Source: Planctomycetota bacterium
GTDB taxonomy: Bacteria > Planctomycetota > SZUA-567 > H5-PLA8
Length of the DNA: 64,000 bases
Direction: 5' to 3'
NCBI GenBank assembly: GCA_038227875.1
Contig: JBBRPR010000005.1
Span: 128,001 to 192,000, forward strand
Shown: positions 27,401-30,400 of the stretch, piece by piece
How the letters are laid out: each line of letters begins with the position of its first letter
How positions within the stretch are numbered: the first letter of the stretch is position 1
Position numbers: made by a program

Positions 27401-30400
27401 TTCAGACGATCGGCATCGAGTCGGTGCATCCCGACCTGGAATTTGCGATCGCGCATGCGTCGGCGCTGATCCGCGAGCGGAGCGTCGAACGCGTGCGCGC
27501 GGACGCGGCGCCGGAACTGGCGCGGTCATAAAAATCGTCCGGGGAGAAAGCAGGGCTTCCTCCCCGGAGTGTTAGTTCGCGCTGATGCGCTTCTGCACGT
27601 ATTCGGAATACTCTTCGCGCATGGGCAGTTCCTGGTCGCGCTTGATGCGGCGGCGCGTCGTGGTAACGGCTGCGCCGGTTTGCGGATTTAACGAGTCCTT
27701 CTGGTACTCTTCCCAATACAGCCCAATGCCGCGCTTCTGCCAGTTGGGGACGTCATTGAAGTTGAGCCCGTATTGAAAGAGCAGCTCGTTCTTCTCAGCG
27801 ACGGACATGCCATTGAGTTTCTCCGTCGCCGCGCGGACGCTCAGATTTTCCCTGCGCAGACGCCAGTAGCAGTGGGCGCTCAGCGCGTTGCGGTGCGCGT
27901 CTTCGTTGCGCCAGCGAAAGTAGTCCACGACCAGCGCTTCATTCGGGAACTGAGCGATGCGGCAGTCGAAGCACGCGTGGGCGCCAAGCAACAACGAAAA
28001 CGCGGCGCTGGCTTCACCGGCAAGAATGGAATCGTACTTCCGCAACTTGCGGCCGAAGCCCTCCTCCGCGGGGTGGAAGAGCAGCGAGATTTCGTCGCTC
28101 TGCGTGTAACCATAGATCACGCGAAAGCCGCAGTTCATCAAGTGCTCGGTGGTCTGCGCCATCATATCGCGCATACGCGCGTCGAAGGGGCTTTCGAACT
28201 GGTGGACTTCCTTGGTCAGCCGCGTGAAGCTGCGTCCGTCTATGCGCGCGACCATGTACATGCCGGGCAGGACGCAGACGTCGCCAGCCGTCTCATAGAC
28301 GCGCATTTTTGAATCCAGATCGTCAAATTTCATGCCTCCACTCCTCAACGATAAACGTGTGTTCGTTTCCTTTTTGCCGTTCCATTCGGACGTAGTACAG
28401 CGTGTCGAAACCTTCACTCAGCGCCGGACGCGTCAGGCGGCCGTATACGCCAAGCACGCCTTTCTCGGGTACCTGCTGCTCCGGCGGGCGCATTGCGTTG
28501 CGCGCCAGACTCTCGTGAATTTTGGACTCGAAGTAATAGCCCACAACGCGAAAACCCGCCGGACGAGCCAGTGCGATGTACTTGGCGCGCTGCTCGGAAC
28601 TGACATTGGTGTTATCGATGACGAATGGTTGCTTAGCGCTGATGCAGGCGGCCAGCAACAGGTCCTCGCGATGCCGTGTGCGCAGCATGTCGAGGTTGAT
28701 GCGGATGTGCGTGTTGAAAAACCGCTCGGCAAAGAACGTGGACTTGCCCGTGGCTTGAATGCCAACGAAGAGGATTGCTTCCATGATAGTCGATCGCTTT
28801 ACTATTCATCGCGGTTCCATCCGTTCTCGGCACTAAACCACGCGAAAGTGCATTCGTCAATATCTGCAAACGAAAACAGCGCGCAGATGCGCGCTGTTTT
28901 CTAAAGAACATGTCGAGTCCTTTGCTACACGCGGGCCAATTCGGCAATGCGCTCGGGTTTGTTTTCCACGCGCGTCCACCAGTTGATGAGGTCGAACTTC
29001 GAGTCGCCGATCAGGGAGCGCCAGAGCTTGATGCGGTTCATGATCTCGCGGCGGGTTTCGTGGCCGTGCCAGGGGATATCTTCCTGGAGAATCCGGGCGA
29101 CGTCGGGGTGCTGCACGTCATCGGTGTTGAACAGGCGTTCCTGCTTGACTGACGCATTGAGGCGCAGCTTGAACATATAACGCATGCGATCGGTGAAATT
29201 CGAACGCGCGGCGTGCCAGATGTTGTGGTGCCAGAAGACCAGTGAGCCGGCGGGGCAGACGGTCTGGATCTGGCCGACGATATTCTGGTAGCGCATCAGT
29301 TTGAAAACGTGCGCGCGGCGGAAGTGGCTGCCGGGGACGAAGAGCGTGCCGCCCATGTCCGGGGTGACGGCGTGCGGGAAGAACGAGAGCTGGATGTCGA
29401 AGTGTTCAAAGCGGACATCGTACTCCGCGTCCTGATGGACGTTCTCTTCGCGCTGCGTGTGCGCCGGGACGGTGTGGATGGCGTGGTGATCGTAAAGCGG
29501 ATTCGGGCCGACGAGGCTTTCGATGATCCCTTGCACGCGCGGCAGCGTCAGCACTTTACTGATCGCCGACTGCGGAGCCCAGACGTCGCTCAGCGGGCGC
29601 ATGCGGTACTCGGAATGGCGCAGCGCTTCGGTGTTGAAATCGTTCATCACCGCTGCGCAGAGGTCCGGCGGCACGATGCTGTCGAAGCGCAGGTAACCGT
29701 CCGTGACGAAGCGGGCCATTTCGCGCGAATTCAACCTCAGGTCGTTAGTGGACATCGATCTCCTCCAGTTTTTCGAAGACGAATTCAAAGGGAAGGTACG
29801 AGAGTTCGTACTCCTGGCCGGGGTACGGCGGGCGCAGCGGTGGGTAGACGATCACGCGCCATCCGTCGAGCAACGCCGCCAGGCCATTGGGATAGGGCGG
29901 AACGGCGTTGCCGGACGCGGTGTACTTTTCCTTGCCGGTGCCGTCGTAAAAAGACCAGCCGGTGACGGCGGATTCCAGATTGGAATTGCCCAGGTAAAGC
30001 ACGAGCAGTTTCTGGCGGAGCGCACGGCGCGCCGGCTTGACTGGGGATTCGAGCGTGGATTGGGTCATGTCGTTTTGTCTCCTGGGGGACTTCAAAGATA
30101 ACAGATGGGATCGGGGATGGGGCATTGGGTATCTGCTTTTTGGAAGGCGCGTCAGTGACGCTCACTTGAAGTGAGAAGACGTTCAAAGTCGGCTGCACAC
30201 GAACTGACCCATGCCCAATGCCTGATCCCCGATCCCATCTGTTTGGAATGCAACCTAACTGACACAGGTCCCATTTCCTCTCCTCACTCTATTTCACGTT
30301 GCCAAAACCGTCCATATCGGGGAGAGTCCAGTTTATGTCTAATCGGCTCATTCACGCACCGCACGCCTTTCGCCCCACGGAACAGATTTCGGCGCACATT

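Follow-up and report, generated by a model that had tools for sequence, protein, structure and literature searches.

A kinase gene overlapping a Thg1-like protein gene in a Planctomycetota genome: a plain two-gene instance of a predicted RNA 5'-end repair operon

The association of Thg1 with a polynucleotide kinase was already reported by Anantharaman, Iyer, and Aravind in 2010 (Biol Direct 5:43; PMC2904730), who proposed that the kinase generates the 5'-phosphate substrate for Thg1 in RNA/tRNA repair and who found the association extended to RNA ligase genes in some genomes. In vitro, the Thg1-like proteins (TLPs) BtTLP and MaTLP repair 5'-truncated, 5'-monophosphorylated tRNAs in a template-dependent manner with ATP or GTP activation (PMC3061083). 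In the published assays, substrates were pre-phosphorylated with T4 PNK, and the native kinase was therefore bypassed (PMC3061083, PMC11957112). The 5'-editing of Dictyostelium mitochondrial tRNAs represents the only known physiological role of TLPs, and the physiological substrates of bacterial TLPs are not known 16 years after the discovery of the activity (PMC11957112). The TLP reviews that we checked pass over the kinase, a 2019 review containing no mention of the word "kinase," and our literature search found neither a bench test of the kinase-TLP pairing, apparently none being in print, nor a paper with a measured activity for the kinase family. The first-pass annotation of the locus studied here was wrong in stating that the pair had no published account, since that account is given in PMC2904730. 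Its idea of a 5'-OH kinase feeding a 3'-5' polymerase stands as the best-supported mechanism, through the kinase signature and fold, the conserved pair, the repair clusters, and the natural fusions, while its claim to novelty falls with the 2010 publication. The locus is an ordinary member of a described, so far predicted, operon type.

The window, i.e., the whole 64,000-nucleotide stretch of the Planctomycetota contig that was analyzed, carries the kinase and TLP genes between a PhyH-family dioxygenase gene on one side and a DUF1275 gene on the other (Table 1). Our own ORF calls and the sequence agree with the ORF positions and the 11-nt overlap given in the first-pass annotation, and a Pfam search reproduced its domain scores (Thg1, 106 bits; Thg1C, 60 bits; AAA_33, 54 bits). 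An alternative, longer TLP start exists at a GTG at 28417, but 21 of 21 aligned TLP homologues start at the MKFD of 28333 and not at this upstream GTG. The 11-nt overlap and its recurrence with the same geometry in related loci make translational coupling of the two genes probable. Judging by its sequence, the strong terminator-like hairpin, which begins 4 nt past the TLP stop codon, closes the two-gene unit. No sigma-70-like site was seen in 27300-30300, and the promoter of the pair presumably lies in the intergenic region between the PhyH-family gene and the kinase gene. Beside the pair, the window holds no gene for a nuclease, a toxin, or another repair enzyme.

Table 1. Features of the kinase-TLP locus (positions in the window)
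Feature	Position	Strand	Details
Kinase gene	28323-28784	minus	ORF, 153 aa; Pfam AAA_33 54.0 bits
Thg1-like protein (TLP) gene	27572-28333	minus	ORF, 253 aa; Pfam Thg1 106.3 bits, Thg1C 60.5 bits
11-nt kinase/TLP overlap ATGAAATTTGA	28323-28333	minus	Met-Lys-Phe-Asp (TLP); ...Glu-Ile-stop (kinase)
Intergenic region, PhyH-family gene/kinase	28785-28924	minus	presumed promoter region; holds the weak hairpin below
Weak hairpin and T-run	28894-28881	minus	just past PhyH stop; terminator-like site
Intrinsic-terminator-like hairpin	27538-27568	minus	14-bp stem, 9 G-C pairs, then T-run

The TLP passes the Pfam gathering cut-offs of both PF04446 (Thg1; 106.3 against 29.2 bits) and PF14413 (Thg1C; 60.5 against 26.3 bits). 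Its metal-binding, catalytic carboxylates D32, D80, and E81 are all kept and are invariant in 22 sequences; their counterparts in human Thg1 and in the 5axk TLP, the latter presumably from Methanosarcina acetivorans, lie in the DGR and SDE motifs. The TLP-family profile matches the solved TLP/Thg1 structures (5axk, 3otb, and 4kgk) at E values from 1e-38 (5axk) to 6.5e-25, with the best score for 5axk (136 bits), followed by human Thg1 (114 bits) and BtTLP (99 bits). Moreover, the TLP carries HRNALSAH in place of the HINNLYN of human Thg1, a type of motif that we take to be tied to tRNA-His recognition. As far as sequence can tell, the protein is of the TLP type and not of the eukaryotic tRNA-His-specific Thg1 type. 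Homologues at 68 to 78% identity occur in many phyla, among them a Corallococcus TLP that is ~71 to 72% identical and has the kinase upstream. Corallococcus belongs to the same family as Myxococcus, the source of the studied MxTLP. Other carriers of this operon are found among Mucilaginibacter, Pedobacter, and Nostoc-type strains.

These features bear on two other possible roles. That the TLP serves as a back-up for tRNA-His maturation, restoring a lost G-1 with the kinase being incidental, appears highly unlikely. Earlier studies describe bacterial TLPs adding G-1 opposite C73 in vitro (PMC3245924, PMC6471195), but also favoring 5'-truncated tRNAs over full-length tRNA-His (PMC6471195). The tRNA-His(GTG) of this genome, on contig C41, does have C73, but the G-1 opposite to it is already encoded, as the first-pass annotation had claimed. 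Besides the HRNALSAH divergence, which also speaks against it, such a role would leave the conserved overlapping kinase unexplained, textbook RNase P products already carrying a 5'-phosphate. With RNase P leaving this phosphate and G-1 being encoded, a kinase therefore makes sense only for breaks that leave a 5'-OH. We likewise give very little credence to a signaling or defense role in which the TLP palm domain would make a nucleotide signal without any RNA repair. The kinship of this palm domain with GGDEF and Cas10 (PMC2904730) and a patchy spread that looks like horizontal transfer would fit such a role. Against it stand the strong match of the TLP profile to solved TLP/Thg1 structures, related loci that include Corallococcus, and the repair enzymes that recur as neighbors at related loci. 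Moreover, no effector or sensor gene adjoining the pair was found, and 0 families of PADLOC-DB 2.0 matched at an E value of <=0.01 with the TLP, the kinase, and the PhyH neighbor as queries; a defense system was rejected on this lack of a PADLOC match.

The kinase consists of one domain over its 153 aa, according to both the Pfam search and the AF2 model (pLDDT 92.3). Its Walker A motif, G8-x4-G13-K14-S15, fits GxxxxGK[ST], with G8, G13, and K14 invariant and S15 nearly so in an alignment of 22 homologues, in which D32, D57-N58-T59-N60, and the lid residues R95, N96, and R99 are also invariant or nearly so. The likeness to PNKP noted in the first-pass annotation holds: the kinase-family profile matches the kinase domain of mammalian (mouse) PNKP at an E value of 1e-16, ahead of the Clostridium thermocellum Pnkp kinase (2e-7), PSTK (5e-6), and T4 Pnk (1e-3). 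The identity to PNKP is 26 to 28%. In the profile alignment, D32 falls on the Asp of the PNKP "vnrDtl" segment, presumably the PNKP catalytic residue, and DNTN (57-60) falls on "viDNTNp"; D32 is thus the putative catalytic Asp. The mouse PNKP kinase domain is also the best solved structural match of the model (TM 0.85; rmsd, 1.8 A), and Foldseek ranks 1 to 8 are all PNKP chains (TM 0.75 to 0.85), followed by the Mucorales RNA 5'-OH kinases 9drz and 9d8a, C. thermocellum Pnk, PSTK, and T4 Pnk. The two Mucorales proteins are stand-alone RNA 5'-OH kinases (PMC11571804). The model also has a conserved C-terminal beta-hairpin (residues 128 to 148). The protein is not a bifunctional PNKP or bacterial Pnkp, as it has no 3'-phosphatase, phosphoesterase, or ligase domain; the corresponding NCBIfam models, PNK-3'Pase and bacterial Pnkp, match only weakly (34 bits with a cut-off of 503 and 27 bits with a cut-off of 750, respectively). 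With its Walker A, its Asp plus DNTN-type motif, and its nearest fold, the predicted protein belongs, by motifs, profile, and model, to the polynucleotide 5'-OH kinase clade.

AAA_33 is nevertheless a broad family, and the nearest relatives of the kinase also include PSTK and KTI12-like tRNA-binding kinases/ATPases. The protein could then be, instead of a 5'-OH polynucleotide kinase, a PSTK/KTI12-like tRNA-binding P-loop protein or a small-molecule or nucleotide kinase that regulates or loads the TLP, which we regard as improbable. PSTK and KTI12 do figure among the profile and fold matches, AAA_33 also takes in gluconate kinases, and three related genomes encode a kinase homologue but no TLP. 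However, polynucleotide kinases match far better than PSTK (E values of 1e-16 versus 5e-6; TM of 0.85 versus ~0.6), D32, lying on the "vnrDtl" Asp, and DNTN are invariant, and this single-domain 153-aa protein is devoid of the extra domain that PSTK uses to hold tRNA.

The conservation of the pair was assessed at the 80 closest TLP loci. A kinase gene lies directly upstream on the same strand in 67 of them (64 full-length and 3 cut by a contig end); at the others, it is frameshifted (1 locus), interrupted (1 locus), a remnant (2 loci), or absent (9 loci). The same geometry of ORF ends is seen at 59 of the 70 related loci with a kinase match, and 64 of the 80 loci carry the string [AG]TGAA[AG]TTTGA where the TLP begins. 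In a sample of 400 other genomes of the window's own phylum, 29 encode a TLP and 23 a member of the kinase family; the kinase is directly upstream of the TLP in 20 of the 29 TLP-bearing genomes and missing from the TLP locus in 9. Both samples agree in direction with the earlier neighbor figure of 1064 of 1952 genomes. Kinase and TLP pairwise identities co-vary over 65 pairs (r = 0.76, a value reached in 0 of 999 permutations), although shared ancestry alone could produce this co-variation. Natural fusions were also found, namely kinase plus Thg1 plus Thg1C (P0257), Hen1 plus kinase (P0244), and kinase plus a SUKH immunity-type domain (P0243). A complex prediction for the TLP and the kinase scored 0.00 against a mark of 0.32, which speaks neither for nor against binding. 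Sequence comparison argues that the kinase-TLP pair has been conserved, and its genes kept coupled, across phyla.

The partnership is not obligate, since kinase homologues occur without a TLP in 3 same-family genomes. The single such copy that was examined has accA on one side and a pilM-like gene on the other, a housekeeping setting where no repair context was found. Conversely, the neighbors of 8 kinase-less TLP loci were unrelated among loci, and a replacement partner was rejected on this basis; an ORF of unknown function of ~440 aa, with no likeness to the kinase, abuts the TLP in 2 of these 8 loci.

About a quarter of the related loci (21 of 80) have Pnkp, Hen1, RlaP, or RNA-ligase genes within 6 kb: Pnkp at 11, Hen1 at 15, RlaP at 6, and an RNA ligase with HD-kinase at 5. 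The gene order hen1-kinase-TLP-pnkp, on one strand, is found at 8 of these 21 repair-cluster loci. As the main text of PMC2904730 has 0 occurrences of Hen1, this order may not be listed there. The small kinase is full-length in 11 of 11 Pnkp loci, though Pnkp has its own kinase domain. The locus studied here, flanked by its PhyH and DUF1275 genes, is not a Pnkp/Hen1 cassette. In its genome, which is 88% complete, PNKP_ligase had no match, a control being likewise unmatched in any genome, and none of its four RtcB loci, tandem RlaP genes, or RNA ligases is linked to the pair.

The genome studied here has a single copy of Thg1. None was found in 16 same-family genomes, as the first-pass annotation had indicated, and of 24 additional relatives 1 has Thg1. 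In a tree (quick search, midpoint root), the pair's sequence is placed, with weak support, among Acidobacteriota and Bacteroidota copies, apart from the main clades of its own phylum. This placement and the absence of the pair from the 16 same-family genomes suggest that it was probably gained horizontally. A very recent acquisition, such as a recent island, was rejected since the GC and GC3 contents of the pair are close to those of the genome. TLP homologues exist in 154 phage records, all at <60% identity (29 to 35% among the 25 matches listed), whereas no kinase match was found in phage records at an E value of <=1e-5; a phage origin of the pair's clade was rejected on both grounds.

Genomic context and distribution also bear on whether the same chemistry could serve another client, i.e., the housekeeping quality control or maturation of RNAs other than tRNA whose 5' ends are recessed (such as small RNAs and the terminal helices of rRNA or 5S), rather than a response to toxin damage of tRNA. 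PMC6471195 reports TLP action on non-tRNA-His substrates in vitro and discusses non-tRNA substrates; moreover, the window shows no conflict-type neighbor or PADLOC match, and the GC and GC3 contents indicate that the pair is not a recent arrival. However, a patchy spread (29 of 400 phylum genomes and 0 of 16 family genomes) does not resemble that of a housekeeping function, Pnkp/Hen1, RlaP, and RNA-ligase clusters repeatedly harbor the pair, and the kinase is found fused to the SUKH immunity-type domain. We consider such a housekeeping client rather unlikely.

We therefore propose, with reasonable confidence, that the two genes by themselves form a translationally coupled operon for RNA 5'-end repair, mending by resynthesis and not by ligation, and most likely rebuilding the clipped 5' ends of tRNA-like RNAs. 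A transesterifying nuclease or chemical breakage would cut the 5' strand of a helical RNA, the obvious case being a tRNA acceptor stem, and loss of the short 5' piece would leave a recessed 5'-OH on the RNA body. The 153-aa kinase, judging by its family, motifs, and fold, would then move the gamma-phosphate of an NTP onto this 5'-OH. The TLP, by analogy with what homologous TLPs alone have been seen to do in vitro, would activate the 5'-phosphate with ATP or GTP and add the missing nucleotides in the 3'-to-5' direction, on the 3'-strand template, until the helix is full. Since neither 3'-end healing nor a ligase would be needed, this scheme would explain why two genes suffice. As in the literature, a ribotoxin as the source of the break and tRNA as the substrate are both inferred. 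Points that weigh against the scheme are the breadth of AAA_33, the loci at which TLP or kinase stands without the other, and the lone position of the pair in this window; moreover, to our knowledge, no nuclease leaving 5'-OH, 5'-truncated tRNAs has been described in bacteria.

A more specific version, which we put forward tentatively, would make the kinase a dedicated TLP partner for recessed helical 5'-OH ends, in a ligase-independent resynthesis pathway that would complement Pnkp/Hen1 ligation and serve tRNAs in which an unrecognized class of toxin or phage nucleases has cut the 5' acceptor strand. PNKP, the closest structural relative of the kinase, prefers recessed ends. Such a dedicated partnership would explain why none of the 11 Pnkp loci has lost or shortened the small kinase and why hen1 and pnkp often flank the pair. 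In either version, the conserved overlapping kinase points to a 5'-OH, i.e., the product of a transesterifying nuclease, as the substrate end, and the question of the TLP substrate thereby becomes directly testable.

Compared with known proteins, the TLP shares its two-domain architecture and catalytic residues with BtTLP (Bacillus thuringiensis, 4kgk), the archaeal TLP 5axk, and Myxococcus xanthus MxTLP, its clade being nearer to 5axk than to BtTLP by profile score. The P-loop fold, Walker A, Asp, DNTN, and Arg lid of the kinase are common to PNKP (1yj5, 3u7g), C. thermocellum Pnkp kinase, T4 Pnk, and the Mucorales kinases; this predicted kinase, of 153 aa only, has no phosphatase, FHA, or ligase domain.

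At the level of pathways, Pnkp/Hen1 and RtcA/RtcB also start from broken RNA with a 5'-OH, as proposed here, and Pnkp also begins with 5' phosphorylation. However, they rejoin the two halves by ligation, with Hen1 methylating the junction, whereas the pair described here has no ligase or phosphoesterase. Pnkp/Hen1 clusters physically contain the kinase-TLP pair at 11 to 15 of the 80 related loci. Dictyostelium TLP editing likewise rebuilds the 5' acceptor strand in a templated 3'-5' manner, as we propose for the pair, but it is a eukaryotic organellar maturation step, and no kinase dedicated to it is known to us. The operon predicted in 2010 has the same gene pair and the same proposed mechanism, and nothing essential differs from it here (PMC2904730). 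Our additions to it are modest, consisting of linkage numbers, overlap geometry across phyla, natural fusions, and placement in Pnkp/Hen1 and RlaP clusters, and the locus itself is a plain two-gene instance of that operon without MACRO or ligase neighbors.

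The kinase and Thg1-like protein (TLP) genes of the window overlap by 11 nt (ATGAAATTTGA), and we recovered both ORFs and their Pfam scores as they had been reported by the first-pass annotation. A weak hairpin lies just 3' of the stop codon of the PhyH-family gene, the upstream neighbour of the kinase, and a strong terminator-like hairpin (14-bp stem followed by a T-run) begins 4 nt past the TLP stop codon. As these hairpins flank two overlapping genes, the kinase and the TLP form a two-gene operon; no sigma-70-like promoter was seen in a scan around the pair. Elsewhere in the window, a single 1806-aa ORF ends in a Cys-rich SEC-C-like motif, as judged by eye, and a few related loci (L016; cluster 14) have small SEC-C-motif ORFs upstream of their kinase.

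Coordinates of the kinase-TLP pair and of other features (C, contig; G, relative's genome; L, related locus)
Feature	Location	Strand	Remarks
Kinase ORF, 153 aa	window, ATG at 28784, end 28323	minus	ORF reading; AAA_33 54.0 bits
TLP ORF, 253 aa	window, 28333-27572	minus	Pfam Thg1 106.3 bits, Thg1C 60.5 bits
1806-aa ORF	window, 20059-25479	plus	
Four RtcB loci, own genome	C59:21842-23176, C102:8076-9404, C26:84570-85634, C3:108559-109599		
Two tandem RlaP genes, own genome	C18:53565-55084		
RNA ligase, own genome	C8:45797-46366		one of two RNA-ligase genes
tRNA array, own genome	C25, ~17667-21131 (L092)		
Kinase homologue without Thg1, window's family	L121 5147-5701 (G006)	minus	155-160 bits
Kinase homologue without Thg1, window's family	G010:C61:26361-26822		155-160 bits
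Kinase homologue without Thg1, window's family	G012:C4:108813-109259		155-160 bits
Decaying kinase beside intact TLP	L033 4376-6000		
Decaying kinase beside intact TLP	L072 5564-6008		
~440-aa ORF	L095:161-1474	plus	
~440-aa ORF	L104:1884-3218	minus	

The association of the two genes extends far beyond the window. Among the best 80 of 585 confirmed TLP loci, on contigs from one genome per species, we looked for a kinase immediately upstream in the same orientation: it was full-length in 64, cut by a contig end in 3, frameshifted in 1, interrupted by ~1.2 kb in 1, reduced to a C-terminal remnant in 2 and absent in 9. In this same set of 80, the end geometry of the window was common to 59 of the 70 loci having a kinase match, and the string [AG]TGAA[AG]TTTGA stands at the TLP start in 64 loci, which is not independent proof of coupling because the invariant MKFD of the TLP also fixes it. 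The frameshifted, interrupted and remnant kinases lie beside intact TLPs in L033, L072, L004 and L063, upstream of the TLP in the last two. A quick tree of 107 TLPs grouped 97 rows in a core clade (support 90), with deep kinase-less lineages branching outside; inside this clade, kinase-less rows are dispersed at the tips, and 7 of the 17 rows scored as lacking the kinase actually carry a cut or degraded one. The window's TLP was placed, with weak support, near Acidobacteriota and Bacteroidota copies, apart from the main clades of its phylum. In one kinase-less lineage (L095 and L104), a ~440-aa ORF with no Pfam match and no likeness to the kinase family abuts the TLP start.

Across 400 other genomes sampled evenly from the window's phylum, the TLP was present in 29, the kinase family in 23, and the two were adjacent in 20. 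The 9 TLPs without kinase are mostly divergent, one being a fragment, and the 3 genomes with kinase and no TLP all belong to the window's own family; one of these kinase-only copies, when examined, was flanked by accA and a pilM-like gene. The window's own genome holds a single Thg1 gene, and the family was present in 1 of 24 further relatives. As previously annotated, it was found in none of the 16 same-family genomes, and the normal tRNA-His carries an encoded G-1; this G-1 lies opposite C73.

Conservation of the TLP across phyla is unusually tight, with homologues 68 to 78% identical in Acidobacteriota, Bacillota, Bacteroidota, Cyanobacteriota, Planctomycetota, Myxococcota, Chloroflexota, and others. 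Residues D32, D80, and E81 are invariant and match the metal-binding motifs of solved Thg1/TLP structures, the best match to the TLP profile among such structures being the TLP 5axk (E 1e-38), followed by human Thg1 and BtTLP.

Kinase homologues of ~150 aa are plentiful (4934 at E <= 0.001 among 4968 candidates), those aligned being 57 to 66% identical to the window kinase, with the single exception of one 85% relative. The family shares an invariant Walker A (G8/G13/K14) together with D32, D57, T59, N60, R95, N96, and R99. Its profile matches the mammalian PNKP kinase domain (E 1e-16), then Clostridium thermocellum Pnkp kinase (2e-7), PSTK (5e-6), and T4 Pnk (1e-3), aligning D32 on the Asp of PNKP 'vnrDtl' and DNTN on 'viDNTNp'. 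The AF2 model (pLDDT 92.3) superposes on PNKP (TM 0.85, rmsd 1.8 A), followed in the fold ranking by two stand-alone fungal RNA 5'-OH kinases (PMC11571804), C. thermocellum Pnk, PSTK, and T4 Pnk. Matches to bifunctional enzymes in NCBIfam were weak and below threshold, as expected since the kinase domain stands alone. Rare fusions include kinase-Thg1-Thg1C (P0257; partial in P0249; eukaryotic in P0259), Hen1-kinase with a complete Hen1 part (P0244), kinase-SUKH (P0243; SMI1/KNR4, an immunity-type domain), and a kinase homologue fused to a SAM methyltransferase (P0242).

Known RNA-repair genes, whose representatives were confirmed by Pfam and the remainder detected by tblastn to those representatives, lie within 6 kb in 21 of the best 80 of 585 loci: Hen1 in 15, Pnkp in 11, RlaP in 6, and RNA ligase with HD-kinase in 5. 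The small kinase is full-length in all 11 loci having Pnkp. Eight loci share the one-strand order hen1-kinase-TLP-pnkp (L034, L043, L044, L048, L076, L023, L029, and L065), and L029 and L065 also hold two RlaP genes within this cluster. An Hsp70-family gene lies downstream of the pair within 6 kb in L006, L007, L026, and L046, in two of them behind the RNA ligase and HD-kinase gene. The window's own genome is rich in RNA-repair genes, every one unlinked to the pair. ARAGORN predicted 81 tRNAs there, including one tRNA-Pyl and two tRNA-SeC; the dense one-strand array on C25 holds at least 15 tRNA genes, among them an unusual tRNA-His(GTG) whose acceptor stem contains an A.A mismatch, as well as an RNA-ligase-family ORF (PF09414, 48 bits).

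In the best-supported model, a transesterifying break within the 5' strand would leave a recessed 5'-OH, which the kinase would convert to a 5'-phosphate; the TLP would then activate this phosphate with ATP or GTP and restore the nucleotides that were lost, with the 3' strand as template. This last chemistry has been demonstrated in vitro, for TLP homologues only (PMC3061083); the kinase step, the kind of break, and the client RNA are what we infer. The in vivo function of the bacterial TLPs was uninvestigated according to a 2011 review (PMC3245924), the word "kinase" does not occur in a 2019 TLP review (PMC6471195), and a 2025 preprint (PMC11957112) counts two known TLP functions, both in Dictyostelium, the substrates of the Myxococcus xanthus enzyme being unidentified. 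Our searches found no experimental test of the pair. The repair interpretation put forward by the first-pass annotation is sound; its claim that the pair had no published account was mistaken, and its novelty falls with it, as Anantharaman, Iyer and Aravind had predicted the system in 2010 (PMC2904730). They report the kinase as the most persistent association of bacterial Thg1, place it in a drawn reaction scheme, and record MACRO and RNA-ligase neighbours, with no mention of Hen1 in the main text. Altogether, the kinase-TLP locus of the window is an ordinary, stand-alone member of this already predicted operon type.
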